From a virus: a stretch of DNA of 64,000 nucleotides. The notes below the pieces were generated by a model. That model worked only from the letters and a program-made list of their open reading frames with translations. It did not search any database and was not told where the DNA came from. A program made the translations under genes and the position numbers. Location of the stretch: the IMG/VR virus record IMGVR_UViG_3300042691_038490, positions 30,860 to 94,859 of that record. The stretch is one strand, 5' to 3'. Position 1 is the stretch's first letter, and each line of letters opens with the position of its first letter. This document shows, one piece after another, positions 1 through 30,900 of the stretch.

Positions 1-249
1 AATGATCAGTATTCTCTTGAAATTCCTCTTGCAGGATTTAAGAAAGAGAATATTGATATTACTACAAATCAAGAATATCTAACTGTTAGGGCAACTAGAA
101 AAGAAGGCAAAGTAAAATATGAAAAGTCTTTTTACTTGCCTAGAAAAGTAGATCTTACCGAAGTTAAAGCAAAGCATGAAGATGGTTTATTGACTATTAC
201 CTTTGGTAAAGAAAATAAAAAACTACAAAATAAAATCAAAATAGACTAA
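1..249 (+). CDS. Small heat-shock protein Hsp20 (5'-truncated by window)
   Basis: Frame 1 reads ...YSLEIPLAGFRKENIDIT...FYLPRKVDLTEVKAKHEDGLLTITF, an alpha-crystallin signature; stop TAA at 247-249. Confidence 0.9.
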   Translation, partial: NDQYSLEIPLAGFKKENIDITTNQEYLTVRATRKEGKVKYEKSFYLPRKVDLTEVKAKHEDGLLTITFGKENKKLQNKIKID

Positions 250-256
250 TAATAAT

Positions 257-287
257 CTTAGCGTCAAGTTCAAACCTTGGCGCTAAG
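257..287 (+). other. 12-bp hairpin capped by a tRNA T-loop-like sequence, downstream of hsp20
   Basis: CTTAGCGTCAAG-TTCAAAC-CTTGGCGCTAAG; no U-tract. Confidence 0.6.
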
Positions 288-368
288 TGTAATACTTTTA
301 TATGACACTAGCTTCTTGGTTAATTTGTGGTGCAGTTTTAGTTTATATACTTTATTTAAAAGAGAGAA

Positions 369-749
369 TTAAATAGCAGATATAGTAACTGTGCCAGACC
401 ACCCGCTCGCCCCATTATAGTTACCTTCTGGTCGAATCGTGGAGAAGTCTGGCGGCCCAACTCCTGAAAATTTAGCAAAGTTCGAAGATCCTCCAGCGAT
501 TAAGCTAATCAACCAAGGGAATCCACTATAGTATAGTTTATAAGTATCTGTCTCATCATAATAAACAGGTTGCCCACTATTGGTTAAACCACTGTCGTAA
601 AATCTTAAATTATTTATATCTGGCGATAGTCCTACGCCAGTAGCTTTGTATAAATAAGTTCTTGCTTGTGAAACAATTGCTTTTTTAGGAATATATAAAT
701 TTATTCCTCTTGTAAATGAACCTAATTGTTTTGTCCCCTTAACTCTCAT
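369..749 (-). CDS. Hypothetical protein, possibly virion-associated
   Basis: 126-aa Gly/Ser/Tyr-rich ORF; GTGTAA motif 10 nt upstream. Confidence 0.6.
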   Translation of the reverse strand: MRVKGTKQLGSFTRGINLYIPKKAIVSQARTYLYKATGVGLSPDINNLRFYDSGLTNSGQPVYYDETDTYKLYYSGFPWLISLIAGGSSNFAKFSGVGPPDFSTIRPEGNYNGASGWSGTVTISAI

Positions 750-766
750 TATTCTTAAATTACACT

Positions 767-1033
767 TTATTTATCAAGGTAGTCTTCTATGTCTTTTATT
801 AATTTTTTTCTTTTTCTACGCTCTAGAACTGTTACTAGTGTCGCTAAAGAGATCGGAAAAAAGAACCTAAGAAAAAATCCCATATGGTGCTCTTTAGTAA
901 GAAGGTCAAAGTGATTAAGGTAAAGATCGCTGAGTCCGTAAATTGTAAACAAAATAGCTGGAATAAAAACAATAAAAAAGAACTTCTCGTAATGTTCAAG
1001 ATTATTCCACCAATTTATTATTTTAGTAAGCAT
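767..1033 (-). CDS. Small two-TM membrane protein
   Basis: Two hydrophobic segments and a basic tail; GTGTAA upstream. Confidence 0.6.
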   Translation of the reverse strand: MLTKIINWWNNLEHYEKFFFIVFIPAILFTIYGLSDLYLNHFDLLTKEHHMGFFLRFFFPISLATLVTVLERRKRKKLIKDIEDYLDK

Positions 1034-1051
1034 ATCATAATTGCTTACACC

Positions 1052-1375
1052 TTAATATGGAGTAGCTTCTGGAGGGTTTGAATTTATATTACTAGAAACT
1101 GGAGGAATTTGAGTATCTATACTAGATTGCTCTGTTCCACTAGCTGTATCTAATTCTAGGCTTAAGGCTTCATCTAGATTTAATTCGCCATCACCAACGT
1201 TATATGTTGTAGATTTTCCATCCATCTCTATAACGATTGGAGTAGATTGACCATTGATACTTAAAATTATTTCACCCTTGTCGTTTCTTTTTATATTCAT
1301 TTTAATTTGATTTTCTGTATAGACATAAGTTGTCATAAGAATCGCGGCTAATATTAATAGTACTAATGTTTTCAT
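1052..1375 (-). CDS. Hypothetical exported protein
   Basis: N-terminal signal/TM; Pro/Ser-rich tail ending PPEATPY; overlaps upstream gene. Confidence 0.6.
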   Translation of the reverse strand: MKTLVLLILAAILMTTYVYTENQIKMNIKRNDKGEIILSINGQSTPIVIEMDGKSTTYNVGDGELNLDEALSLELDTASGTEQSSIDTQIPPVSSNINSNPPEATPY

Positions 1376-1611
1376 TTATTTATTTCTCCTGCTGATGTTT
1401 TAATATCTAAATTATTGTTAGTTTCTTTTAATACAATAGATAATCCACAAACTGCTGCGAGAACTAGTAGTAAAATAGCTAAAAAATTAGTTTTTCTTTC
1501 TTGCTGTTTCTTTGTTCTATATTGATTAAAATTTTGTATGAAAACCTCTGTTTCTTTAGAGGATGGTTCATAGTAATTTTTTTTTAATATTGCTCTCAAC
1601 TTATTATCCAT
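1372..1611 (-). CDS. Single-TM protein resembling small anti-sigma-like proteins
   Basis: MDNKLRAILKKNYYEPS..FIQNF then basic patch and TM; start moved to the MDNK ATG, which overlaps the upstream gene's 3' end. Confidence 0.4.
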   Translation of the reverse strand: MDNKLRAILKKNYYEPSSKETEVFIQNFNQYRTKKQQERKTNFLAILLLVLAAVCGLSIVLKETNNNLDIKTSAGEINK

Positions 1612-2401
1612 TTCTAAACATTCTCCTATAACCAATTACAGAAGATAATCCTATTAATGCTAAAGAAAAAGAAGATGGTTCTGGTATAACGCCTACATCA
1701 ACAAGCGAGTCTGCGACGTATAATTCTTCTACATAAACTGTTGGAGCTGTGGTTGCTGAACCTTGTCTTAAATTAATTGCAGAAATATTTAATGCTGGTT
1801 CTGCGCCTGTTGTTGAATTCCAATTAGATTGAATTTCTGTGGCTAACGATAGCCTATCATTAACGTTAGGATTTACATACAAACTAAAAGTATCATTTGC
1901 TGCTCCAGCTACTATATCCCAAGCAATAACAATTGAATATAAAGTATTTAGATCAAGCACAGAGCTACCCCATACTGTAAGTGATCCCGTTCCAGATGTT
2001 GACATTAATCCTAAATTAAATCCAGAACCAGAAGCTCTTACAAATAATCTTTGATAAAAATTAGAACTTGTTCCTGCTGGGTCTGATAAACTAAAAAAGT
2101 AATCACCATTCGCTTGAGCATTAACTACAGAAAGATCAATTCTTGTATATAAAGTAGAGACATTTGCTTTTACAGCTTGTGTTTGAAAAGATTTCCAGAC
2201 ATCTTGTCCAGTTGAGCCAACTACTATTTTACCATTAAAATATTGAACTGGATTATTACTCGCAGTAGAAGTTTGATTCCACCCGTTTTGTCCTACTAAA
2301 TTTGCATCAATATAATTTGTATTTAAAGTATCAACAAGAAATGTTGCTGCGTTTATATTAGAAGTTATTGCTATAATTAGTGTTGCTATTAGTTTTTTCA
2401 T
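1604..2401 (-). CDS. PEP-CTERM sorting-domain protein
   Basis: Signal peptide; C-terminal VIPEPSSFSLALIGLSSVIGYRR. Confidence 0.92.
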   Translation of the reverse strand: MKKLIATLIIAITSNINAATFLVDTLNTNYIDANLVGQNGWNQTSTASNNPVQYFNGKIVVGSTGQDVWKSFQTQAVKANVSTLYTRIDLSVVNAQANGDYFFSLSDPAGTSSNFYQRLFVRASGSGFNLGLMSTSGTGSLTVWGSSVLDLNTLYSIVIAWDIVAGAANDTFSLYVNPNVNDRLSLATEIQSNWNSTTGAEPALNISAINLRQGSATTAPTVYVEELYVADSLVDVGVIPEPSSFSLALIGLSSVIGYRRMFRNG

Positions 2402-3231
2402 AGATTTTTAATCTTTCTAATTAATATTAATGTTACCGCTCCTATCCCTAGCAGAGATGCAGCTGATGGCTCTGGAATACTAACAGCATCAAATGTTACA
2501 AGACTAAATGGAGCTATACTTTGAGTTCCATTTAATTGCCATACTGAAACCGTAAATGTTTCATTTGCTAGCGCATCAATCTCAAATACCGCCATATCAG
2601 GATTGCCATCTCTAGTTAATAATGAAGAAAAAACTGTTCCTGTTGAAGCGCTAAAAATACCTACGTAGTCTGGTGCATAAGTTCCAGAAGCGGCAGTATC
2701 AACAACTATACCAAATCTAAAAGTTGTTGGCGTACTTATAGTAAAATTAAGCGCAATACCAAAATATCCATTATTTGATCCAGACGGAGTGTTGTAAGCG
2801 CCATTATTGACTGATACAGATAGTGCGCCTTGTCTATATAAAGATGAACCATCTGGTCCTCTAAAAATAGGATACCCACCATAATTTACAAATGTACCTG
2901 CTCCTCCAGTCAATGAACTAACGAAAGACGGAGTTGAACTTAAAGAAGGATAAGAGCTACTATTTGTACCTAATAAATTACCAGATCCAGCTGATTCGCC
3001 TATGTTTGCTGCTCCTGGATCCCAAGGCATAGGACGTATTTGAACATATCCAGAAGAACCATATATGTCGCTTCCTATATCATAAGTTTTAGAAACGCTA
3101 GCATTAGACCAATTTTGAACTGTATAACCATTACTTGCATTTCCTGTTTCAGTTCCTACAAAAGTAATTGCAGACTTGAGGCTACTTGTTAATACTAATG
3201 TAGCTATTGCTATTGTTATTAATTTTTTCAT
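2398..3231 (-). CDS. PEP-CTERM sorting-domain protein
   Basis: Signal peptide; C-terminal SIPEPSAASLLGIGAVTLILIRKIK. Confidence 0.92.
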   Translation of the reverse strand: MKKLITIAIATLVLTSSLKSAITFVGTETGNASNGYTVQNWSNASVSKTYDIGSDIYGSSGYVQIRPMPWDPGAANIGESAGSGNLLGTNSSSYPSLSSTPSFVSSLTGGAGTFVNYGGYPIFRGPDGSSLYRQGALSVSVNNGAYNTPSGSNNGYFGIALNFTISTPTTFRFGIVVDTAASGTYAPDYVGIFSASTGTVFSSLLTRDGNPDMAVFEIDALANETFTVSVWQLNGTQSIAPFSLVTFDAVSIPEPSAASLLGIGAVTLILIRKIKNL

Positions 3232-3957
3232 TTATTTCCTTCTTAAGGCTCTAACTCCAATTAATAGTCCAAAACCTAATAACATTGATGACATTGTTGT
3301 TGGCTCTGGAACGATCTGAAGAGTCATATTATCTACATTAATTGCACCAGAACTATAATTTTGCTGTTGCATTTCTAATCCAAATTGAGCAACTGAAACA
3401 TCATTTGGCACAGTTACTGTGAATTCTCTATATGTCCAAGTATCTAAAGGAGTATTCTTTAAAGATACTAAAACAGATGCCCAATCATAATAATATGAAT
3501 AGTCTGAATTAAAAAACTTAGCATACATAAATGCATCTGTTGTTGTTTGTAATGGATCATAACTTGAGATGTATATATCCATAGAAAATTTAAGTTCTTT
3601 ACCTTGAATATATGGAATCCAGCCATTTGTTGGATCATACCAATCATCGTATATATAACTATTAGATGTTGTTACGTTTCCTGGACCCCAATACAATGGC
3701 CACATTTTACCTAATTTAGAACCACCAGGAGCCACAATATAAGTTCCTGGCTCACCTGTAGCTGGCGCACCATATATTGTATCTCCAGAATTTAATACCG
3801 CTGTATTAGCAGATGGGTATCCACTAAATCCTGTCCATGATCCATCTTCAAAATCTTCAACAAATAATATCTCTGATTTTAAAGAGGTTGCAGACATAAA
3901 AAAAGCCGCAGTTAAAATTGCGGCTGTGCTTCTTAGTATTTTTTTGTATATATTCAT
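3232..3957 (-). CDS. PEP-CTERM sorting-domain protein, possible carbohydrate-binding fold
   Basis: Signal peptide; C-terminal IVPEPTTMSSMLLGFGLLIGVRALRRK. Confidence 0.92.
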   Translation of the reverse strand: MNIYKKILRSTAAILTAAFFMSATSLKSEILFVEDFEDGSWTGFSGYPSANTAVLNSGDTIYGAPATGEPGTYIVAPGGSKLGKMWPLYWGPGNVTTSNSYIYDDWYDPTNGWIPYIQGKELKFSMDIYISSYDPLQTTTDAFMYAKFFNSDYSYYYDWASVLVSLKNTPLDTWTYREFTVTVPNDVSVAQFGLEMQQQNYSSGAINVDNMTLQIVPEPTTMSSMLLGFGLLIGVRALRRK

Positions 3958-4013
3958 AATCCTTGTTCCTTTTTGTTTGTAGACATCTTAAATTTTATTT
4001 TGTTCAAAGTTTT

Positions 4014-4544
4014 TTACTCCTTTATCCATGCTGTGGTTTTTTGATTATCATCATCAATAAGAATACTATTAAATACTATAGCTCTATATTTATCTTCTAT
4101 CCAATTTGTTATTCTTAGATGATATTCATTTTTATTTCCAGCAGCACCAACTGGCATAGTTCCATAATTACTATCGTAAATCCACAACATTCCTTTATAC
4201 TCAAAAACGCATACAGCATGACCATAGAATTTAGGTATGTTTACTGTATATTCAATTTTTGTTTTATCGAACTCTACATCTACTGTAAGATCAGCTTTAT
4301 AATGATATTGAAAAGCATAAATTTGCGCCCATGTATTTTCATTAGATAATATATAATTAGCATTAGAAGCAAAAGTAACAGAATCAACAAAACAAGAATT
4401 AGGCAGCTTAGATATGCTATGGTTTCTAGCTAAATTAAATCCTATTTTGAGTGCATAGTAAGCTATTATCCCATTTATTAAAAGTACTAGTGTTAGTTTA
4501 CTTTTCCATCCAAACCAATTGAATAAATTTTTAAGCTTATTCAC
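4014..4544 (-). CDS. Membrane-anchored transglutaminase/papain-like cysteine protease (putative)
   Basis: N-terminal TM; NSCFVDS...GHAVCVF...WIYD gives the Cys-His-Asp order. Confidence 0.55.
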   Translation of the reverse strand: MNKLKNLFNWFGWKSKLTLVLLINGIIAYYALKIGFNLARNHSISKLPNSCFVDSVTFASNANYILSNENTWAQIYAFQYHYKADLTVDVEFDKTKIEYTVNIPKFYGHAVCVFEYKGMLWIYDSNYGTMPVGAAGNKNEYHLRITNWIEDKYRAIVFNSILIDDDNQKTTAWIKE

Positions 4545-4580
4545 TATCTCCTTGGATTACACGCAGGAGTTGTATTTAAT

Positions 4581-5897
4581 TTATTTTTTATTTTTATAAT
4601 CTTGCAGACAAGATTTAAATTTAGATTTATCGTCGCCTTGTTTGGTAGGAATACATTCTTTTAAAAACTCGTTAAATTTTTGACCTTCAGTGACCATCAT
4701 TCCTTTATACTCTTCATCATCTTCCATATCATATTTTTCTTCTTTTTCATTTTCTGAAGCTTTACTTTTGCAGTGTTGCTTTTGACTAAAACCTTTTGGA
4801 TTATTACAGTCTATACTTCTTTTGTATTTCATGCTCCATTTAGCTTCTATTTTTTGTAATTGAATTTCTGTTTTACCAAGCATATCGCCTTTCTTCCAAG
4901 TAGCGCCATCATTGGTTGCTTCATAAATTACCGCATATCCCATATCTTCTGGAAGTTCACGAATCTCTTTGACGATACCTTCGCTACCATAGTGCTTGCA
5001 TTGAGCATTAACATTTTTTACTTTATCTCCAACTTTAAACATTGTTGCGCCTTCCATCTCTTCCATTTCTTCAGGTTCTTCGTCTTCTTTATTAAACATT
5101 ACATAGTTATGAATTGTAATCATATAGTCTTCTGCTAGGGCAGCCATAGATTGTAAAAATGGTTCAGTAAGATTTTCTTTTACCATTGGATCGTTAACTT
5201 TATCCATTACGTTCTTTGCGTGTTGATAGATAGAATTAATTGAACCAACGATCATGCCATAGAAATCTTCTTTATAATCTTCATATTCGTCTTCGATATC
5301 TTCCACTTCTTCAACTTGAGCAAGTGAAGGATCTAGTTTTAAAAGTTCTTCTTGATCAAATTCTGTTGTTCCGTCCCATTCATATTCTTCTGCTTGAGCT
5401 CTTTTGATCGCTTCTGGACTTGGACGATCTTTAGAACCTTCTGGTGCTGGGCGATAATTTTTACCCATTCTTTTTTTCTTTTGTTGTATATTGTACCAAA
5501 GCCCTTTGCTTTTTGCTTGAATATCTATCTCTAGTAAGGATTCAGTTTCTTTTTCCTCAGAAGATGCGCATCCTGGTTTTCCACAAGATCCTTTTGTATA
5601 TTGAGTAACAGATTTTCCAGCTTCCCACATTTTACAACTCCAGTATCTTGCTTTATACTTTGGACCTGGATTATCATCGCAAGAGTGACGGGAACGAAAA
5701 GCTTTACGACGAGCTGGATCATCACGACGAATCTCCATATTTGGATCACCAAATTTAACCATTACAATATTACCCTTATCGTTCTTTACATAAACACCAA
5801 ATTTCTTTTTGCTTCCTTGTGGAAGGCGGAATGGTTTATTTAATGGAGCTTTGCCCTTTTTAGCTGCTTTTAATTGCTCTGTAAAGTCTATTTCCAT
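4581..5897 (-). CDS. Modular phage protein, putative internal head polyprotein
   Basis: Modules KKFGVYV..VKFGDP..FRSRHSC..ARYWSC, GLWYNI..RP, FKVGDKV, WSMKYKRSIDCNNPKGFSQKQHC joined by acidic linkers. Confidence 0.6.
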   Translation of the reverse strand: MEIDFTEQLKAAKKGKAPLNKPFRLPQGSKKKFGVYVKNDKGNIVMVKFGDPNMEIRRDDPARRKAFRSRHSCDDNPGPKYKARYWSCKMWEAGKSVTQYTKGSCGKPGCASSEEKETESLLEIDIQAKSKGLWYNIQQKKKRMGKNYRPAPEGSKDRPSPEAIKRAQAEEYEWDGTTEFDQEELLKLDPSLAQVEEVEDIEDEYEDYKEDFYGMIVGSINSIYQHAKNVMDKVNDPMVKENLTEPFLQSMAALAEDYMITIHNYVMFNKEDEEPEEMEEMEGATMFKVGDKVKNVNAQCKHYGSEGIVKEIRELPEDMGYAVIYEATNDGATWKKGDMLGKTEIQLQKIEAKWSMKYKRSIDCNNPKGFSQKQHCKSKASENEKEEKYDMEDDEEYKGMMVTEGQKFNEFLKECIPTKQGDDKSKFKSCLQDYKNKK

Positions 5898-5898
5898 A

Positions 5899-6510
5899 TT
5901 ATATTAATGGTTCTTTAGCTAAGTTGGTTCTTTCCCAAGCTATATATCTTGGTGTTTCAGCACTATAAACATTAACATCACCAACGTAAGCTTGATCACT
6001 TAAGCTTCCACCATCTCCTGCATCTTCATAAGAGCAGCCAGCTAGAACAAAGTTAAAACTTGAATTACTTGCAGCACTACTTCCATACTTTACATAAAGT
6101 TTTCCAGTTGCTAAATTTTGTAAAAATAATTCTCTACGATATATATTATAATTTAATACTTTTGTGTTTGATGTTCCTACTGAATAGTTATTTATTCCTG
6201 TGCTTTGTTCTGGGAAATTTGTTACTGCATCAAATTGTTGAGTAAGATCTGCTTGGAAAACAATTGTACCTTGAACTCCCGCTGGATATGGATCGCCAGT
6301 GATAAATAGTTTATTGTCAATGCTTGTTGTTTCAGCTAATATTCCACTTAAATAAGAATTTGGGCCAAATGTTCCAGCTGCTCCAGTTAGTATATCCTCT
6401 ATGCTATCAAGTTTTCTCCAATCAAGACCTTTAAATCCTGTAAATCCAGGTTCTTCTGTGTAAACTTCTACTACATTTTTATTAAAATTTGGATCGTATA
6501 CATTACCCAT
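5899..6510 (-). CDS. Putative virion structural protein
   Basis: Shares N-terminal ~40 aa with 6554-7930; GTGTAA upstream. Confidence 0.55.
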   Translation of the reverse strand: MGNVYDPNFNKNVVEVYTEEPGFTGFKGLDWRKLDSIEDILTGAAGTFGPNSYLSGILAETTSIDNKLFITGDPYPAGVQGTIVFQADLTQQFDAVTNFPEQSTGINNYSVGTSNTKVLNYNIYRRELFLQNLATGKLYVKYGSSAASNSSFNFVLAGCSYEDAGDGGSLSDQAYVGDVNVYSAETPRYIAWERTNLAKEPLI

Positions 6511-6553
6511 AGTAAATATTATTACACTTTAAAAATAAAAAATATATTATAAA

Positions 6554-7930
6554 TTATCTAGTTTCTCGCCATTGTAAGCTTGCTAAGGTATTTGTTGAAG
6601 TATTGTTAGATGTAGACATATTCTTAAGTAAAATAGCAAAAATATTACTATCTGTACTATCTATATTTTGACTAATATAACCTCTCTTGGCAGATGTTAT
6701 ACTTCCTAGGTTTGTGGATGCTGATATTGTATTTCCTTGACCACCAGGAGCAACTGTAGTAAATCCAGCAGAAAACATATTAGCTCCAGCAAGATTATAT
6801 CCTGTTGCATTTATATTATATTCAACTACGCTAGTATCATCTGCGCTAACCCATGATCCACCAATTAATGATGCTCCACTTGGAAGGCGCCAAAATTCAT
6901 AAGAACAAGTTTGACTAACGCTATAAAGTTGTGATGTTCCTAATCTAACTACACTTCTATTTGGTTGACCAAAATATCCGGTTTTTAATCTAATTGCTAT
7001 AACTGGGATTGTAGTATTTTCGACAATATTTCTATAGCCAGTAGTTCTTGCAGCAAAATCTACTCCTGCTTCAGTATATCCACCTTCACTAAAAACTGTA
7101 GCGCAAATTTGATCCATCGAATCTGTACCCATTGAAGATGATCCAGAATAATTTCTAATTTCACAACGAACCGGAAGATTTGGATTGCTAATGTATACTG
7201 AATCTTTTAAATTACTATTATAAAATTCATGAGCTGTTACAAATTTTCCTTCATGAACAAATCCAACTCTTACTCTACCAACTCCAAGCCATTCATAGTC
7301 TGTCCAAAATAGTTGTGTTTTAGTTGGATTTAAATTAAATTGTGAAAATCCGTTTCCATTGCATGTATCAGTATTCCAATTGATTTGTGGAATTAGTTCA
7401 TTATATACATATCCAGAAACATTACTTCTTAATCCAAAATATAAACCTCCATCTCCACTTTGCATGAGGTATATGCCATTTTTATCATCGAATAGTCCAA
7501 TTCTTTTATTTGTTCCAGCTCTATATCCTGTAAAATTAAAACTTTGTAAACTTACTTGACTTTTTCCTGGCATATAGTGATGATACATTCTGCTTTGATG
7601 AATTGTAAAATCATTAGTTCCAGTTCCAACTTGTAATACTGCTTTTGCTTTTAAGATATCAAATGAGATAGAAGAATTATTTCCACTTGTTTTTGTTAAG
7701 AGTTCTGTTTCTTCACCATAAACGTGAGAATAGTCTGCTAGAGTAAATGGTTCTGAAACTCTCATTCTTCCAAATGCATCAATATTTGTTGCGCTAGAAG
7801 AATTTCTTAAAAGAGATTCAATATCATCCAATTTATTCCATTCTAAACCTTTAAATCCAGTGAATCCTGGTTCTTCTGTATAAACCTCAACAACATTTTT
7901 ATTAAAATTTGGATCGTATATGTTAGACAT
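6554..7930 (-). CDS. Putative virion structural (fibre-like) protein
   Basis: DAFGRMRVS and DYEWLGVGRVR motifs recalled from large-phage beta-rich structural proteins. Confidence 0.65.
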   Translation of the reverse strand: MSNIYDPNFNKNVVEVYTEEPGFTGFKGLEWNKLDDIESLLRNSSSATNIDAFGRMRVSEPFTLADYSHVYGEETELLTKTSGNNSSISFDILKAKAVLQVGTGTNDFTIHQSRMYHHYMPGKSQVSLQSFNFTGYRAGTNKRIGLFDDKNGIYLMQSGDGGLYFGLRSNVSGYVYNELIPQINWNTDTCNGNGFSQFNLNPTKTQLFWTDYEWLGVGRVRVGFVHEGKFVTAHEFYNSNLKDSVYISNPNLPVRCEIRNYSGSSSMGTDSMDQICATVFSEGGYTEAGVDFAARTTGYRNIVENTTIPVIAIRLKTGYFGQPNRSVVRLGTSQLYSVSQTCSYEFWRLPSGASLIGGSWVSADDTSVVEYNINATGYNLAGANMFSAGFTTVAPGGQGNTISASTNLGSITSAKRGYISQNIDSTDSNIFAILLKNMSTSNNTSTNTLASLQWRETR

Positions 7931-7935
7931 ATAGA

Positions 7936-8223
7936 TTAATTTGTATGATAAATAATAGAAACCAATCCTGAAGTCTCTACATAGAGGTCATCTCCTCCAC
8001 AATTTACTGTTGCTGGAAGATTATAATTACCTACTCCAACATATAAAATTACTGCACCAGATGCATCTTTTATTTTAAATGTAGAATTTGCTGTGCAACT
8101 AACTCCAAGAAGATAAATATTTTTACCATTTCCTGGAGAGCTTAAAATAACACCATTTCCACTTCTGCTTACAGATAGAGCTTCTGCCTCAAATCCTGTG
8201 TCTCTAAAAAAATACTTTGACAT
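7936..8223 (-). CDS. Hypothetical protein
   Basis: 95-aa beta-rich ORF; GTGTAA upstream. Confidence 0.6.
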   Translation of the reverse strand: MSKYFFRDTGFEAEALSVSRSGNGVILSSPGNGKNIYLLGVSCTANSTFKIKDASGAVILYVGVGNYNLPATVNCGGDDLYVETSGLVSIIYHTN

Positions 8224-8239
8224 ATAAAGCTATTACACT

Positions 8240-8971
8240 TTATTTTTTGCTATCTAGTTCTTCAAATTTTTCAATAATATAGGCTAATATATCATTTCTC
8301 ATAATATCATCTGTGCCAAACTTAAATGTCATAATACCTTTATCAGAACTTTTCTTATCATCAAAAAGGTTATATATTTTTTCAAATCCACTATTTTTAA
8401 TATCTGATTGTCTAATATCACCAATTAATATAAGTTTACTAAATTTACCCATTCTTGTGGTAATTAATAATAAATCATGTATGCTTAAATTTTGGGCTTC
8501 GTCACATATAATATAACTCGCATTAATACTTAGCCCTCGCAAAAATCCTACTGGTAATCCTTTAACTCTTTCCTCCTTCAATAACCTTTCGACTTGTCCC
8601 TTTGGTAATAATTCATGAAGTTTATCCATTAATGGTTGGAGATAAGGGTCTAGTTTACTATGAAGATCACCTTTAAGGAATCCAAGATTGTGGGTAGAAC
8701 TTTCTACTGGATTTCGGATATAAAAAATTTCACCTATCTTTTTACTATTTAAAGCCTGTAAAGCTGCGTATACAGAAAGTAAACTTTTTGCTGTTCCTGC
8801 TGGACCTTTACAGAATACTATTTTTGTATCTTTTGATTGAAGAAGTTGTATAAATTTCTTTTGATTATCTGTCCATTGTAATTCGCGAATATCTAAGAAG
8901 CCTTCAATTTTATCTCTTTGAGGAACTACTGGTGACTTATCTTCTATCTTACGTTTATTTTTTTTAGACAT
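8240..8971 (-). CDS. phoH: PhoH-family ATPase
   Basis: GPAGTAKS Walker A, LGFLKG, FLRG, ICDEAQN, GDIRQSD. Confidence 0.95.
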   Translation of the reverse strand: MSKKNKRKIEDKSPVVPQRDKIEGFLDIRELQWTDNQKKFIQLLQSKDTKIVFCKGPAGTAKSLLSVYAALQALNSKKIGEIFYIRNPVESSTHNLGFLKGDLHSKLDPYLQPLMDKLHELLPKGQVERLLKEERVKGLPVGFLRGLSINASYIICDEAQNLSIHDLLLITTRMGKFSKLILIGDIRQSDIKNSGFEKIYNLFDDKKSSDKGIMTFKFGTDDIMRNDILAYIIEKFEELDSKK

Positions 8972-8993
8972 TATTACTTACTTAAATATTACA

Positions 8994-9773
8994 CTATTTT
9001 ATAATAAAATTGTTTAAATATTCTATATTTTTTAAAGCCATGGGACTATTCTTGGCGTCGCGGATTAAATGTATGTACCCAGTTTTTGAATGTATTTTTA
9101 CATTATAGTCTGTTCTAGAAAAAAGTGTTTTTATTTTTTTATTTAAAATATTACAACTAATAGCAAAATAATATTGTTCACCTATACATGCTTTTAAATC
9201 TGATTTCATATAATAATTTGTTGCCCAAAAATTAGCATTATCTTTATCTAAAATTGTTTTTAATGCTAAGCTTGAATATTTCTCAAAAAAATCTAAATCT
9301 TTTCCTCCTATTATTCCACAATTTGGCGCCCAATTAGATTTAAACTTATCTTCATAAAATTTATTAATACAATATTTTTCGAAAAAATGTAATTGATATC
9401 TTGCATCGCAACCTCTTTCTATAGATTGACAAAATATATCTGAATTAACTAAATCAAATGGTAATTTATTTACTAAAAAAACATCATAATCTAAATGTAA
9501 AAATGGATCTCCATAACTAGCAATCGTTTGATACGCTTTTATTTTACCTAGACTCCAAACATTTTTATATTCTTTCGGTAAAGATTCAAGTTCTGTACTT
9601 ATATTATTCCATTTAAAAATATTTTTTAAGATTTGTTCGCCTTTATAATCTGTTATTAAATTAATTTCATTGTAATGCTGTTTTGCGTAATAAAGGGCTA
9701 CCTTCAATATATTAATAAATTGATATTGTTTAAATGTCTCTTCTTGTGTCCAGAAGGACATATAAACCTTCAT
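8994..9773 (-). CDS. GT-A-fold nucleotide-sugar transferase-like protein (DUF6734-like)
   Basis: WSLGKI, FLHLDYDVF (DxD), NCGIIGG, EQY, YIHL. Confidence 0.65.
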   Translation of the reverse strand: MKVYMSFWTQEETFKQYQFINILKVALYYAKQHYNEINLITDYKGEQILKNIFKWNNISTELESLPKEYKNVWSLGKIKAYQTIASYGDPFLHLDYDVFLVNKLPFDLVNSDIFCQSIERGCDARYQLHFFEKYCINKFYEDKFKSNWAPNCGIIGGKDLDFFEKYSSLALKTILDKDNANFWATNYYMKSDLKACIGEQYYFAISCNILNKKIKTLFSRTDYNVKIHSKTGYIHLIRDAKNSPMALKNIEYLNNFIIK

Positions 9774-9788
9774 AAATTTTTATAAATA

Positions 9789-10082
9789 TTAAACTAGAGC
9801 GTAACCTTTTTTAAATTTTAGATCTAATTCAAATGCATTTACGGCCAAGCCACGATCAAATCTCTTAATAAAGTCTGCGCCTTTTTTTGGCATTTCAGCT
9901 ATAAACATTTTTTTATCAATTTCTAAAATTACTTGAGATGGTAATACAGAAACATTAGTAATTTTTTTCTTCATCTTACTTTTGATTGCTCTAGCGATTG
10001 CACAATTTTGTGGATTAGCTTTTTCGCCTTCGAGAATATTTCTATCTGTTATCTTTAGGTTTTGTTTCATTCTTTTCTCCAT
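9789..10082 (-). CDS. Hypothetical protein
   Basis: ORF track; NCAIARAI motif. Confidence 0.6.
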   Translation of the reverse strand: MEKRMKQNLKITDRNILEGEKANPQNCAIARAIKSKMKKKITNVSVLPSQVILEIDKKMFIAEMPKKGADFIKRFDRGLAVNAFELDLKFKKGYALV

Positions 10083-10443
10083 TTTTGTTTTTATAAACTA
10101 CTTCAAATGCTTTTGCTTTTGAATTTAATAGTTTAAAAGCTGCTTCAGATTCTTTTCTTATATCTTCATCGCTTATTATCCAGAATTTGCACCAACCTTC
10201 TGGATCTATTGGTCCTTGAATTAATTCACATCTTGGCGAACTACCTTCAAGATAATAAAATACGCAATATTCACATTCTAAATTTTGTTCTTTAAATGGA
10301 TTTTGAGCTGCGCTTATATACTGAATTCCATTTGGTCCAAGTCCACGGTCAAAATATCCATATGTTTGTAAATTAGTTACTATTTTAAGATAAAGATCTT
10401 TTTGGCGTTCTATTAATTTAGGAAATATAAGACCTTCGTTCAT
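10042..10443 (-). CDS. Protein with HiPIP-like four-Cys motif
   Basis: CEYCVFY..RCELIQGPIDPEGWCKFW. Confidence 0.6.
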   Translation of the reverse strand: MNEGLIFPKLIERQKDLYLKIVTNLQTYGYFDRGLGPNGIQYISAAQNPFKEQNLECEYCVFYYLEGSSPRCELIQGPIDPEGWCKFWIISDEDIRKESEAAFKLLNSKAKAFEVVYKNKNGEKNETKPKDNR

Positions 10444-11078
10444 TTTATCTCATTTACACCATATTCGTAATTATCAGAATCTTCTGTGACCCACTTAGGA
10501 CAATTTTCCACGCTATAGATATGACTATTAACTTTGCGTTCAATAAGATTTTGGCCTTGTTTAGTAACAAAGTTTGGATCATATAATCTTAATCTATTAT
10601 TTGGTTGGATGGCAAAATTTCCATTGTCCAGTTGTAATACGTGACCACATTTATGCTGACCAGGATTCTCACTAAATCCAAAATTAAGTTCATTATAATC
10701 ACTATGCGCCCAATCAAGTGTGAATAAGTATGTTCCAAAATGTTCTTTACCAGTTCTAGATAAAAATTTTAATTTTTTATTTTGAAATATAGAGAATTTA
10801 GTTACTGCTATATGATAACTAAAACTGTCCCATAATTCTAATTCGTGAATATCTTGTTCTGGAGTTCCTTCTTTTGAGCAAAATGCGCTAATTGGTGCAT
10901 GCCACCAAATCCCACCATCTTCCATAATAAAGTTAAAAAGTGGCGCTTGAGATGGTAATGATGTTATTCCAAATACTAAAACTTGAAAATATTTATCATG
11001 AGAATCTTGCTGATTGCGTAAATAATTTCCTCTTACATAACATTCAATAGGTGGTATATTTGCGTTAAGAAAAGCCAT
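10440..11078 (-). CDS. Conserved phage hypothetical protein
   Basis: MAFLNANIPP...HKCGHVLQLDNGNFAIQPNNR; GTGTAA upstream. Confidence 0.7.
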   Translation of the reverse strand: MAFLNANIPPIECYVRGNYLRNQQDSHDKYFQVLVFGITSLPSQAPLFNFIMEDGGIWWHAPISAFCSKEGTPEQDIHELELWDSFSYHIAVTKFSIFQNKKLKFLSRTGKEHFGTYLFTLDWAHSDYNELNFGFSENPGQHKCGHVLQLDNGNFAIQPNNRLRLYDPNFVTKQGQNLIERKVNSHIYSVENCPKWVTEDSDNYEYGVNEIK

Positions 11079-11092
11079 TTTTCAGAATTACA

Positions 11093-11533
11093 CTAAATAT
11101 AAACACTAAATATACTATCAAATTCAGCTTGAGACAAATACAAGGCTTGACCGTTTTGTGGCTCTATAAATGTAATTTTAATTTCATTATTATCTTCTGT
11201 ATATGCTATATTAATCGCATGACCATTACCATTTGAACGTTTGTAATGTATAACTCCAATTGCAATACTTTCAGCATCACTATCTATATTTTGTTGATAA
11301 TAACCAGAAGAGAATACTTTAAATGCATCTGCAAAATTATCACAATCCCATTTGTGAGACCAATTTAATAGTCTTATAGATCGCAGCCATGTTCTATATT
11401 TTGGATATATTTCATTTTCAATAATATCTTTTTTTGGACAATAATAGCTTCTATCCGCTATTGTAAAATTTTTAGGTATTTTTTGGTTATTATTAAAAAA
11501 TGGCCTAAGTAATTCTTTACCATCAACAATCAT
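11093..11533 (-). CDS. Cysteine-protease-like protein (MOA C-terminal/transglutaminase-like)
   Basis: WDCDNFA...GHAIN...FIEPQ gives a Cys-His-Glu triad. Confidence 0.7.
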   Translation of the reverse strand: MIVDGKELLRPFFNNNQKIPKNFTIADRSYYCPKKDIIENEIYPKYRTWLRSIRLLNWSHKWDCDNFADAFKVFSSGYYQQNIDSDAESIAIGVIHYKRSNGNGHAINIAYTEDNNEIKITFIEPQNGQALYLSQAEFDSIFSVYI

Positions 11534-11568
11534 AAATTATTTTACACTTTATCTGTGTAATATTTTAT

Positions 11569-11778
11569 ATGCCAGCAGGAAAACAACATACATTTATTGG
11601 TAGAACAGTAGAAGGTTTAAATATATTTACAACTTATAAAGGTATATATAATAATTCAACAACTTATAATGTTGGAAATATTGTTAGATATGAGAACAGT
11701 TTTTACATCAGAATAAATAGCTCGGGCGCAGGAAATTTACCAACAGATGCTAATTATTGGTCAGTATATTCACAATAA
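11569..11778 (+). CDS. Small protein with CBM5/12-like carbohydrate-binding motif
   Basis: YNNSTTYNVGNIVRYENSFY...PT...W; GTGTAA 8 nt upstream. Confidence 0.55.
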   Translation: MPAGKQHTFIGRTVEGLNIFTTYKGIYNNSTTYNVGNIVRYENSFYIRINSSGAGNLPTDANYWSVYSQ

Positions 11779-12117
11779 GTAAATCAAAAAGACCTTTTAA
11801 TAAAAATAGCCCCCTGGAAATTTTGACCTTTAAGTATATTCCTTATTATTGATTTTTTATAGATTTCTAAAAAGGGGTAGGGATATACAGTATAAGCTAG
11901 ATAAGATAGATATTAAGCTGTTTATTGTATTATTTAAATAAGGGTTAACATAGAGATAAGTATAGATAAGATAAATAAGTAATATAAATAGTATAATATT
12001 TGATGGAGATTGAAGATAGTACCCCCTCGACGCTTTTGCGATCTCTGTTCGTCTAATTTTTTCAAAAATGGGGTGGTCATATGCAAAATAAAAGGGGATA
12101 GGGTAGCCCAAAAGTCA

Positions 12118-27907: not shown

Positions 27908-30900
27908 TTAGCTCACTCTTGTTTGTTTATATTTGGTTGCAACGCGACCAAGCATCTCCTCTAGACGCTTAACTTCTTCTTCGTAACCATACTTTTGCCA
28001 TTCCTTAAGATGGGAGATCTGATCAACAATACAATCTTGAATTAATCCCCAATCACTACTGGTAAAATTCTTGTCTGTGTAGTCGCTCATATGATCAATA
28101 TATTTTATTTATTTAGATTAGTCAATTACTTATTTAAAATTTCTATAAGATGATCAATAGTAGGATGCTGAGATGGATCTACTGATTGTTTCGATGCAAT
28201 AAGAGCATAAAGTAATATACTAAGTTCTTCTCTATTAAAAACAAATGTTCTCATTTATTTAATATTCCACCTATTTAATTTATAATCATTCCTAGCACGA
28301 GAAACAGACAATCTATTAATCTTATTTAAAGATAAGTTCTTCCTATTTCGCTTTTTAAAAGTCCTATATCTTTTCTTTGTTTTTTGTTTCTTATTTAGCC
28401 AATAGTGAATCGGCTTTGTATCAATATAGTAATATTTTGCTCTTATATATCCAATAATAGGTATAGTGGCGAAAACAATCGCACAGATTAAAAAAGAATA
28501 AGCTAATATTTGATTCATATTTATCTATTTTCCTCTAGTTTATTTAAGATGTCAATTACAATATTTTTATGTTCGTCTTTTAAATTTGAACTATATTTAT
28601 TTAGTATTATTTGAATACTATTATTTCTGAAACTTTTAATAGTATTTATGCTCATCTCATAAGGCATATTTAGCCTTTCCCATTCACTATTTAAACAAAA
28701 GAACAAATAAGATAGTTCATCCTCAGACAAAACTTTAATTTGATTATTTGTTATCATTTGAATACTTTTTTATTATTTCCATCTCTTATTGCAGGAAATA
28801 TGTCTGGATTATTTGGGCTAGTGCCGTGCTTAAATTCAGTATAATCATCATAGCCATCACCATCAGAATCCACAAGATCACTAGCTGATTTTGCTGGCGT
28901 ATAATTATTTGTTTTACAGATCCATCGTTTATCTACCCAATACCTTTGATCTTTTATTTCTGACTTATTTAGAGCAACAGCTTTTCTATCTTCAATTTCA
29001 CTTTGATATCTTGCTTCTGCTTCGTTAGCAGACTCGTATCCAGATTGATTGTAATTATCTATAATTTTAGTCGCTTTATTTACAAGTCCAATAGTTTCAT
29101 TTAAAGTATCAAAGAATTCTTGAGAGTAACTATTTAGTGTTAATAATATAAGAAACAATGTGGTTTTTGCTAGTCGAAAGGGGTCTAAACTCCTAGCGGG
29201 TTCACCACCAACCAGTCCTTGGGTCACGGCTTCCAAGATATCTTTATTATAATGTTTATTTCCCATAAAATCAATAATAAATCTAAAATAACTTAAAATC
29301 AACCAAAATATTCTAAATCTTCTTTAGCTTTCTTGTCTAGTTTAAAACCAAGAAGTTCTATTATTTCTTTATTTGTCATAGGTTTGGCCGCATTTCCTTT
29401 ATATATGTAATTTTTGTCTACTGCAATAAGATCCCACTCTTTTATATTTAGTTCATATTCATTATTTGTTATTTTTATGGCTACAAAGTTAAGAGTAATC
29501 TTAATTACTATATGTTTGCTTTTATTTTCTAATAGTATTATCTTTTCATCCTCATAAGAGTATATATCATTGACGCTAGTTAGCTTTATTTTCTTTAAAC
29601 TATTAAATAATTCAAGATCAATTATTGCCCAATTCTTTATTATTTTAGGAGGACTCTTTAGCCTATCATAGTATAACTCTAATTTATCTTGTAAAGATTT
29701 AAACTTCACATTATTTATTATACTATAAATTCGCCACTAATTATAGTTTTATTAGTTCTCTTATCATTTCAATAGCTAGTAATATCCATAGTATATAAAT
29801 AGCTCTTTTTAGCCATTTTTCTGCTCTATTATTTAGATATTTTAGTTTTTTAAGTATGTAGTTCACACCTTATACTACACAAGAAGAAAAGAATATAATT
29901 TATTTTAAATATTTCTCTTGACTTATTTAGATATATAAAAGAAAATCATACCCATTTTATACCATTATCTTTATTATTACTCTTATGTTTCTTTAGTTCT
30001 TTTATGCTCTCTAACAGAGTATTTTTAATATATAAGTAACAATAAACTATTAGTAAAGGAATACATAAAGCTATAAAGAGTAATATCCCTAAACAGAGTA
30101 AAATAGGCTTAATTTCAAGGTTTCCAATACTCATTTCTATACCTAACAAAGACCTAATATAGTTTTTCATAGCTCTTTTTAATATATCCTTTCTATTTAT
30201 CGCCTCTACGCTTAATATACCTTCTAATCTTATTTAAAGCAATACAAATATATACAGATAGCCCCAAAGTTCCCATAACCAAAGCGGTAATACTGATAGC
30301 TATAATCAATAATACTATTGTGCCTTCTAAACTAGAACCATAATAAAAATACATATTATTTCTTGCCTCCAACAATAAAAACAATAAAATTACATATACC
30401 AATTATTACAAAGGTCGCTAAATTATAGACCCATTCTAAAAATCTCATATCATTTACCAATATACATATACCCCAAAATGCTCAAGAGTATCATAGATAT
30501 ACCCATTAGTTGATGAAATTCACTCATACTTATTTGTGGTAATATGCCATAACCATAACACCAAAGATCATCAAAATAACAAATAAAATGTGCCAATTAT
30601 TCATAGTTTCTTTAGTATATCCTTTATATCTTGTTTTGAAAAGCCAAATTTTAGAATGTTGCTTAATACAGCAAAAAGGTAATGCTTCTCTGATTTCTTT
30701 AGCTTACTACCTTTTTTCTTGAATTTAGCCACGACCTAGCCTCTTATTTTGTATCCGTTTTTTCCTGTGCTAATTTACGCTCAAAATCTTTAATTTCTTT
30801 GGCAATATCGTCCGCTTCTTCTTCTAGCAATTCACGCCTATAATCTTCAATTTCTTTAATAGTATCGTCTGCTGGCATATACTCAAAGAGCATATCTACC

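Follow-up and report, generated by a model that had tools for sequence, protein, structure and literature searches.

The window analysed here is a stretch of 64,000 nucleotides of viral DNA, corresponding to positions 30,860–94,859 (the 3′ two-thirds) of the 94,859 bp IMG/VR record IMGVR_UViG_3300042691_038490, for which CheckV gives a completeness of 58%. Near its beginning lies a unit of six genes on the minus strand, three of which (PEP3, PEP2 and PEP1) encode proteins with the layout of PEP-CTERM proteins. These are defined by a signal peptide, a diverse domain of low homology, a PEP motif, a transmembrane (TM) helix and a cluster of basic residues (Haft et al., 2006, PMC1569441). The unit, the element that heads it and the gene that follows it are listed below in the order in which they are read.

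4557–4562, minus strand: the hexamer GTGTAA, 12 nt upstream of the GTG start codon of the 176-residue (176 aa) gene.
4014–4544, minus strand: 176 aa protein, anchored by a TM helix at its N-terminus, with a predicted papain/transglutaminase-like domain; the conserved upstream border of the slot in which the PEP genes lie.
3232–3957, minus strand: PEP3, 241 aa; its signal-peptide-like start is of the 'first cassette gene' type, its beta domain is CBM_4_9/DUF642-like, and it ends in a PEP-CTERM tail.
2398–3231, minus strand: PEP2, 277 aa, with a signal peptide, a jelly-roll-like beta-sandwich domain and a PEP-CTERM tail.
1604–2401, minus strand: PEP1, 265 aa, with a signal peptide and a beta-rich domain that may be ConA/LamG-like; its PEP-CTERM tail ends in RNG (the 'last cassette gene' type).
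1372–1611, minus strand: small type II membrane protein, 79 aa (87 aa if the start is the TTG at 1635); it marks the downstream end of the PEP genes and is conserved in that place.
1052–1375, minus strand: 107 aa protein with a signal-peptide-like start and a C-terminus rich in Ser, Pro and Asn; the final gene of the unit.
767–1033, minus strand: 88 aa protein whose two TM segments are followed by a charged C-terminus; it is preceded by its own GTGTAA at 1045–1050.

A preliminary description of this DNA had assigned the whole span 1052–4562 to an operon of three PEP-CTERM proteins. The trio is present as described; the 107 aa, small TM and 176 aa genes in the same span are not PEP-CTERM genes, yet they belong to the same unit. 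No other GTGTAA is found between 4562 and the copy at 1045–1050. Because the copy at 4557–4562 is the only one until 1050, we treat the six genes from 4544 down to 1052 as one unit.

The N-termini of PEP1–3 carry two or three lysines within the first six residues, followed by 12–18 hydrophobic residues. These were read from the sequence by inspection, and the cleavage sites of the signal peptides can be placed only without confidence. At the C-termini a (V/I)PEP motif is followed by about 18–20 hydrophobic residues and then by a basic cluster. In the translations of the open reading frames (ORFs) the three tails read VIPEPSS...YRRMFRNG, SIPEPSA...IRKIKNL and IVPEPTT...VRALRRK. An AlphaFold2 model of PEP2 has helices at residues 2–17 and 257–276.

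Hidden Markov models (HMMs) of the PEP-CTERM tail, which are just 24 positions long for both TIGR02595 and PF07589, recognize the three proteins to different extents. The PF07589 scores (cut-off 20.7) are 22.3 bits for PEP3, 20.6 for PEP1 and 14.0 for PEP2. With TIGR02595 on DNA (cut-off 16) PEP2 scores 19.7, PEP3 17.5 and PEP1 13.1, while on protein PEP2 scores 15.5 and PEP3 scores 17.0–17.5 over the different searches. PEP3 lies above the cut-off of both models and PEP2 above that of one, and PEP1 lies 0.1 bit below that of Pfam. Several PEP-CTERM subfamily models match the C-terminal thirds of PEP1–3, including NF038126 for PEP3, and NCBI labels homologues of PEP1 and PEP3 as PEP-CTERM proteins. 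By this predicted anatomy PEP1–3 are PEP-CTERM proteins, and the ORFs and tails bear out what had first been noticed, three tandem genes that each combine a signal peptide, a different domain and a PEP/TM/basic tail. Paralogy of the three was considered and ruled out, as their alignment is confined to the tails.

The genes are tightly packed. PEP3 abuts PEP2, with the stop codon of the former at 3232–3234 and the ATG of the latter ending at 3231, and the PEP2 stop and PEP1 start overlap in ATGA. The ATG of the 79 aa gene sits within the last codons of PEP1, AATGGATAA, in an overlap of 8 nt. Two consecutive Arg codons in the PEP1 tail double as the Shine–Dalgarno sequence (SD; AGGAGA) of this 79 aa gene, and translational coupling of the last PEP gene to the small TM protein is predicted. 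The 107 aa gene, which encodes no PEP-CTERM tail, overlaps the gene before it by 4 nt.

A search of IMG/VR with the 176 aa family yielded 75 loci (numbered with the prefix L), in which the slot was delimited by the small TM gene at one border and the 176 aa gene at the other. Eight further IMG/VR contigs contain PEP3 and PEP2 homologues, with a preserved order of 438 aa gene, 176 aa gene, cargo, small TM gene and 88 aa gene; the cargo itself varies among these eight. The slot is filled in 28 independent loci with one to four cargo genes each (44 in total). It is without cargo in two loci, and in ten the whole insert is missing and the 176 aa gene is followed by a 91 aa homologue of 767–1033. 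Homologues of the small TM protein follow the last PEP gene in the 28 filled loci and directly follow the 176 aa gene in the two without cargo. Homologues of the 107 aa protein are found in L004, L009, L010 and L011. The PEP genes make up a swappable cassette that shows presence/absence polymorphism.

The PEP-CTERM signal is concentrated in this slot. A PEP motif lies within 45 residues of the C-terminus in 39 of the 44 cargo genes, and 27 of the 44 have the strict PEP/TM/basic pattern. Strict tails are found in 38 of the 1228 ORFs of at least 100 aa in the 75 loci; 27 of them are in the slot and the remaining 11 belong to tandem PEP-CTERM genes of more distant phages. In these phages two or three tandem PEP-CTERM genes lie on the opposite strand and at another position (L079/L081 15765–18459, L073 10322–12906 and L084 10281–13583). 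They too have the 176 aa family, they include a 229.7 kb genome rated 100% complete, and some of their proteins have a PEP3-like C-terminal region.

After removal of leaders and tails the cargo can be sorted into the following classes.

PATR beta-repeat family: 29 cargo genes of 553–985 aa with matches to PF12951 and TIGR02601; the dominant class.
PEP3 family and PEP2 family: three locus genes each (four with the copy in the window).
Prepilin-type, pseudopilin-like family: four cargo genes, with TIGR02532 above its cut-off.
Singletons: six, namely PEP1 of the window and five locus genes.

The prepilin-type proteins are 219–222 aa long and lie in the slot at L043:6597–7256, L052:11736–12404, L070:10256–10924 and L082:12000–12668. 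They have the N-terminal methylation motif GFTLVEM, a GspG-like N-terminus and a C-terminus with H-x9-DG, and would represent a second kind of envelope cargo that depends on host machinery. Their assignment to the H-X9-DG family was dropped: NCBIfam does not support it and gives only the prepilin N-terminal domain and a weak match to Verru_Chthon cassette protein D. A further tail variant retains the PEP motif and has neither TM helix nor basic cluster (for example PEPT.LELIT.PWQ.LKALC.MQAEF...). It occurs at L070:7145–10102, L072:1384–3159 and 3163–5208, L075:7238–9007 and 4057–4782, and L053/L059:9505–11475, and since it is conserved across loci it is not a product of simple decay.

The ends of the cargo genes follow their place in the cassette. 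The leader of PEP2 is of the 'first gene' type, MK(I/M)NLLK..., in L049 and L072 and of the 'later gene' type, MKK(L/T)IT..., in the window and in L075. The type of signal peptide and of tail goes with cassette position and not with the cargo domain. A tail with NG at its end is found on the last gene in every case, since the ATG of the following gene lies in AATGGATAA. Within one and the same set of loci the cargo is 69–79% identical and the 438 aa neighbour 66–79%, while the 176 aa gene is only 36–41% identical; the nearest relatives of the 176 aa gene (71–82%) are mostly cassette-free. Such incongruent similarity together with position-bound leaders and tails is the signature of recombinational exchange at what appears to be a hot spot.

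The cassette is part of a phage genome. The minus strand of positions 1–12,000 is dense with coding sequence in the ORF listing, nine tRNA genes are present on the phage and its G+C (GC) content is 32%. Upstream of the unit lie a virion structural protein (6554–7930, minus strand; phrog_1645, 8e-93), with 42% identity to that of cyanophage S-RIM32, and PhoH (8240–8971), found in the PHROG search. Farther from the cassette are rIIA (2.4e-102), rIIB (4.6e-66), a clamp loader and a DNA ligase. Together these make up a set of T4-type core genes with a virion structural protein that is common to T4-like cyanophages, and from rIIA, rIIB, the clamp loader, the ligase, PhoH and the virion structural protein we class this freshwater phage as T4-like. 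It is presumably of the virulent type, with a genome of about 165 kb.

The virion protein gene at 6554–7930 and its neighbour at 5899–6510, also on the minus strand, share an N-terminal module of 45 aa (76% identity, E 4e-22), and their C-terminal parts are unrelated. Relatives have either of the two, both or none. A common module with differing C-termini is the pattern expected of alternative fibre or receptor-binding proteins that dock at one site. The distance from the cassette to these two genes is 1.3 kb.

A passive origin would make the PEP genes part of a chimeric host–phage assembly, or recently captured host genes that decay without a role in the phage. The record is a metagenome assembly of 58% completeness and cellular PEP-CTERM homologues exist, as such an origin would have it. 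Against it, the G+C content at third codon positions (GC3) of PEP1–3 is 0.128–0.182, within the range of the neighbouring phage and structural genes (0.126–0.223) and far from the 0.52 of the closest cellular homologue of PEP3, from Verrucomicrobia genome fragments with 52–58% GC. The AT-richness that the preliminary description had likened to that of the phage is thus seen at the codon level as well. The ratio of nonsynonymous to synonymous substitutions (dN/dS) between the window and other viral contigs is 0.21–0.25 for PEP3 and 0.18–0.26 for PEP2, and among relatives it is 0.16–0.30; with ratios near 0.2 the PEP genes are maintained by purifying selection. The coding junctions are tight (the ATGA overlap, and the 8 nt overlap with its shared SD), and the unit is headed by a phage-specific element. 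Finally, the slot is filled in 28 independent viral contigs from many samples. With phage flanks, phage-like GC3 and synteny across these contigs, the chimeric host fragment, named at the outset as the case that would overturn the description, is excluded. The PEP genes are genuinely phage-borne, and we consider any passive origin hardly credible.

The phage itself brings no enzyme for these tails. No match to the exosortase models PF09721 and TIGR04178 was found on the 94.9 kb contig, so the gene already noted as missing from the window is missing from the rest of the contig too. The same search gave no match in four long relatives, two of which are rated 100% complete by CheckV (229.7 and 171.9 kb) and contain four and one PEP-CTERM tails, respectively. 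Because the phage has no exosortase, the processing enzyme would have to be that of the host. Among the GTDB contigs, taken as one genome per species, the PEP3 family has a sole match at 43% identity. This is in a Verrucomicrobia metagenome-assembled genome (MAG) with an exosortase (143 bits). The PEP-CTERM tails of this MAG number at least 19, and groups of three consecutive ones are frequent. The link to Verrucomicrobiota drawn in the preliminary description agrees with this, as the nearest cellular relatives are PEP-CTERM proteins of Verrucomicrobiota and one such MAG has an exosortase. The host is probably a bacterium of the Planctomycetes–Verrucomicrobia–Chlamydiae (PVC) group, most likely one of the Verrucomicrobiota.

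The domains between leader and tail resemble carbohydrate-binding modules (CBMs) and lectins, at low confidence. PEP3 has homologues with 65–95% identity and a second group with 41–50%, which includes the PEP-CTERM protein of the Verrucomicrobia MAG. A tblastn search with PEP3 against 50,697 GenBank phage records gave no match, and a sequence-profile search of the PDB returned chance-level rows only. Its match to CBM_4_9 is weak, and the clusters nearest to it in the atlas, mostly of Verrucomicrobiota, combine PEP-CTERM with CBM_4_9 or DUF642. For PEP1 there are 85 homologues, including named PEP-CTERM proteins of Pirellulales and Planctomycetota, and its profile finds 15 of 401 Verrucomicrobiota genomes at E ≤ 1e-8. 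Among the matches listed, ten (in nine genomes) cover most of the profile; five are in stand-alone ORFs of 249–296 aa and four inside proteins of 716–1497 aa. Its atlas neighbours are again Verrucomicrobiota PEP-CTERM clusters, with a ConA-like/Laminin_G_3 cluster at rank 13. A viral scan with exact PEP1 peptides gave no match. PEP2 has 406 metagenomic homologues, some of them on contigs of 63–115 kb, and no real homologue in the 401 Verrucomicrobiota species genomes, and its family may be largely phage-borne. The beta-sandwich of its AlphaFold2 model (predicted local distance difference test, pLDDT, 66.7) gives weak matches to CBM35, CBM6, viral lectin domains and BclA-type jelly rolls. PHROGs contains no family that covers PEP1–3 or the small envelope proteins of the unit. 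We tentatively describe all three domains as small beta-sandwiches of the lectin/CBM type.

A homologue of the PEP2 domain is also found outside any cassette. In L012, a 113 kb IMG/VR contig, a 240 aa protein (7947–8669) with 41% identity to PEP2 has neither signal peptide nor PEP tail, and its gene directly follows a 1110 aa tail-fibre-like gene (phrog_5481) and a minor-tail-like gene. Through this homologue the PEP2 domain is common to the cargo and to a module that probably belongs to the virion or serves receptor recognition. A direct tie between surface cargo and receptor recognition is thereby suggested.

We hold it to be fairly probable that the locus is an exchangeable accessory module that displays PEP-CTERM cargo on the infected cell via the host exosortase, with receptor masking as its likely use. 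The GTGTAA-headed unit would supply a membrane-anchored Cys-His-Asp protein of predicted papain fold, the secreted trio and, apparently in translational coupling with it, a pair of small envelope proteins. The three proteins with their differing lectin-like beta-sandwich domains would leave the cytoplasm through Sec by means of their signal peptides. The PEP-CTERM helix would first retain them in the inner membrane, where the host exosortase would then handle them for transfer to the cell surface or the exopolysaccharide layer. There the cargo would most likely bind surface glycans and thereby alter what the infected cell, and later the lysis debris, present to other phages. The benefit would be a masking of receptors, either as superinfection exclusion or by keeping progeny from sticking to debris. 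Through recombination, related phages exchange the cargo that lies between the conserved leader and tail, and each has its own set of small lectin-like, PATR adhesin-like (up to 985 aa) or pseudopilin-like proteins. Titration of the sorting pathway, the other role that had been proposed, finds nothing in its favour in this analysis.

The same cargo could serve adhesion or aggregation in an auxiliary role rather than exclusion. Infected cells would stick to particles, polysaccharide or neighbouring hosts, and progeny would be freed beside new hosts or the infected cell would keep its access to substrate. The CBM-like signals in PEP3 fit such a role, as does the dominance in the relatives of PATR beta-repeat proteins of adhesin type (553–985 aa). 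Bacterial PEP-CTERM proteins are tied to floc formation and cell aggregation, according to Gao et al. (2018) as cited in PMC12642866. Sequence data alone cannot tell adhesion from receptor masking. The virion- and receptor-binding-like neighbours and the PEP2 homologue in a tail-fibre module favour a role between phages or between phage and receptor, and about one third of the relatives with the 176 aa gene are cargo-free, so the module is dispensable. Adhesion as the main role is in our judgement possible, at a rather low probability.

The 176 aa protein at the upstream border has Cys51, His109 and Asp124 invariant in an alignment of 11 sequences. In its AlphaFold2 model (pLDDT 80.8) Cys51 is at the start of helix 50–69, and His109 and Asp124 are on strands 107–116 and 119–124, so that a triad in papain order is placed on a core of helix and beta-sheet. 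The best Foldseek matches are vasohibins (probability 1.0, E 0.013, root-mean-square deviation 3.3–4.5 over 116–124 columns). The VIA Z-scores, which are modest, are 6.6 for AvrPphB, 6.0 for vasohibin, 5.8 for both SseI and PaJOS and 5.4 for CPR-C4. NlpC/P60 and CHAP are not among the structural matches listed, a listing that does not exclude them. At the level of sequence the protein has no family match in Pfam, NCBIfam or PHROG, and a sequence-profile search of the PDB returned chance-level rows only. Its family has only 15 relatives among 1.8 billion representatives and is phage-specific. The protein resembles vasohibins, the AvrPphB–YopT C58 group, SseI and the Josephin-like PaJOS in its invariant Cys at a helix N-terminus followed by His and Asp on successive strands. 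It differs from papain-like and transglutaminase-like peptidases in its N-terminal TM anchor, its restriction to phages and its modest structural scores (E 0.013, Z < 8).

The gene is also found in phages without cargo and is on that account independent of it. Two deeply diverged types exist, with 71–82% versus 33–41% identity to that of the window (L004–L011, L020–L036), on backbones with neighbouring genes that are 66–79% identical. The dN/dS between the types is 0.3–0.5. Such values hint at a gene that evolves fast or whose alleles are replaced. In the closest relatives (L020–L034, at about 8950–9010) a TCTCCTA arm further upstream is able to base-pair with the SD of the gene, TAGGAGA, leaving GTGTAA in the loop of a hairpin that seems better conserved there than in the window; in the variants L031, L035 and L036 the SD is lost and the left arm is lost likewise. 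A corresponding SD-hiding hairpin was sought in the window (4536–4585, minus strand) and rejected, with 5 bp and z −1.17 (not significant).

This protein invites a reading as an envelope or lysis module in which no exosortase takes part. The PEP-CTERM tail would then be a mere membrane anchor for periplasmic domains that bind glycans or peptidoglycan, and the timing or completion of lysis would be a joint task of the cargo, the 176 aa protein as a signal-anchored hydrolase of cell wall or envelope, the small type II TM protein and the holin-like protein with its two TM segments. The papain-like fold, Cys-His-Asp triad and N-terminal TM helix of the 176 aa protein are in agreement with this, and in ten relatives its gene is directly adjacent to that of the two-TM 88 aa protein, as endolysin and holin genes often are. 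The coupling of the last PEP gene to the small TM protein and the SD pairing around GTGTAA in the closest relatives point the same way. However, no lysis family of PHROG, Pfam or NCBIfam matches these proteins, the best structural neighbours of the 176 aa protein are proteases and deamidases and not wall hydrolases of the NlpC/P60 or CHAP type, and the window has only a weak hairpin (5 bp, z −1.17). A strict PEP motif over unrelated domains moreover argues for an enzyme that reads the PEP motif and not for anchoring alone. We regard such a lysis module as improbable.

The vasohibins and the YopT/AvrPphB family include enzymes that trim proteins or cut them near C-termini or membrane anchors. 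The likeness of the 176 aa fold to such enzymes is only a lead. It raises the thought that the membrane-anchored 176 aa protein acts on PEP-CTERM proteins, for example as a sheddase that strips the host coat or cuts the cargo at its tail, an idea to which we attach little credence. If it were true, the phage would swap the exosortase-dependent surface layer of the host for its own cargo, and PEP-CTERM processing would for the first time be linked to an enzyme that is not an exosortase.

The GTGTAA motif at 4557, pointed out in the preliminary description, is a real feature of the contig with a bias in strand and position near ORF starts. There are 27 copies on the minus strand and ten on the plus strand. 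An ORF starts no more than 25 nt downstream of 19 of the 27 minus-strand copies, against 1.2 such cases expected at random and six at most. The hexamer was also considered as an over-represented word and this was ruled out (23 found versus 26 expected), so that the bias in strand and position is the significant part. It usually has an A-rich run before it and T/A after it, with 8–17 nt to the start codon, and most leaders downstream of it lack a Shine–Dalgarno sequence. The virion genes too have a copy upstream. The following copies, all on the minus strand, were located in the window.

760–765, minus strand: GTGTAA.
1045–1050, minus strand: GTGTAA, before the 88 aa gene.
4557–4562, minus strand: GTGTAA, before the 176 aa gene.
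6522–6527, minus strand: GTGTAA.
8233–8238, minus strand: GTGTAA.
8989–8994, minus strand: GTGTAA.
11088–11093, minus strand: GTGTAA.
11542–11547, minus strand: GTGTAA.

A role as a promoter of late-promoter-like type is plausible. GTGTAA acting as a −10-like late promoter would yield mRNAs with hardly any leader.

Several points weigh against a surface display by the host exosortase. PEP1 and PEP2 are at or below the curated HMM cut-offs in some searches. The fold assignments are weak (pLDDT 66.7 for PEP2, with TM-scores of 0.2–0.27 on the query), and the atlas matches are leads only. The PEP tail without TM helix or basic cluster in cargo of L070, L072 and L075 is left unexplained by a simple exosortase model. 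The candidate Verrucomicrobiota genomes have 52–66% GC versus 32% for the phage, and the host is assigned by homology only. No PEP2 homologue is present in the 401 Verrucomicrobiota genomes, so that one or more of the cargo families may be restricted to phages. Should GTGTAA be a late promoter, a surface protein that appears late in the infection would have little time for classical exclusion, and a protection of progeny from debris fits better. Finally, export, exosortase processing, surface location, glycan binding and any benefit, be it exclusion, grazing avoidance, adhesion or titration, are all inferred from the genes.

A search of the literature found no description of phage-encoded PEP-CTERM or exosortase-substrate cargo. 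The nearest published case is a PEP-CTERM-domain protein in the virus-like IME1 elements of Dehalococcoides. To our knowledge, the action of exosortase on PEP-CTERM proteins and the purpose of these proteins are still largely obscure twenty years after the signal was described. A lytic phage lineage that keeps swappable PEP-CTERM cargo without an exosortase is a natural experiment in this respect, and cargo genes with a fixed leader and tail are small portable substrates with which processing, destination and glycan binding could be studied. We likewise know of almost no phage–host biology for freshwater bacteria of the PVC type. PEP-CTERM tails may aid host prediction for uncultured phages, as the host needs an outer membrane and an exosortase. 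If the proposed display is correct, host sorting would serve phage surface proteins by a third route, besides those for lipoproteins and for LPXTG/sortase substrates.

Compared with bacterial substrates of the exosortases (EpsH, Xrt), PEP1–3 have the same layout of signal peptide, domain, PEP motif, TM helix and basic cluster. PEP3 and PEP1 have cellular homologues with 32–50% identity that are named as PEP-CTERM proteins, and tandem arrays of PEP-CTERM genes of 200–280 aa are also found in the candidate host MAG. In contrast to the bacterial systems, the genes are in a T4-like phage genome of phage composition without an exosortase, so the correlation with an exosortase in the same genome fails. 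Bacterial PEP-CTERM genes are mostly single-gene operons with large upstream regions (Haft et al., PMC1569441), whereas those of the phage are in one unit with overlapping genes, and their cargo is exchanged as a cassette whose leader and tail ends are fixed. No member of the PEP2 family turned up in 401 genomes of the Verrucomicrobiota.

Among phage proteins, the closest parallel in proposed function is the exclusion lipoprotein Llp of T5. Its gene is adjacent to that of the receptor-binding protein, and Llp also blocks adsorption to fragments of lysed cells (PMC9586334). Like Llp and Cor of T1/phi80-like phages, PEP1–3 would be small phage proteins that reach the host envelope by host sorting, with genes near receptor-binding or virion genes (PMC9586334). 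The proposed benefit of exclusion and of avoiding adsorption to debris would be shared with Llp. Llp and Cor are lipobox/Lol lipoproteins, whereas PEP1–3 have no lipobox cysteine near the end of the leader and no relation to them in sequence or fold. The cassette also differs in holding up to four cargo genes that are swapped among relatives.

Prophage morons offer a second comparison. They include Bor of lambda (a lipoprotein encoded beside the lysis genes), Lom (an outer-membrane protein) and SasX (an LPXTG sortase substrate of a staphylococcal prophage). By analogy, the cassette products would rely on an envelope-sorting machine of the host and end on its surface, and the cassette has the same accessory presence and absence. 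As for Bor, the genes possibly lie beside lysis-like genes. Bor, Lom and SasX belong to temperate phages and act in lysogeny, whereas the cassette described here is carried by a T4-like, presumably virulent phage and uses the PEP-CTERM signal.

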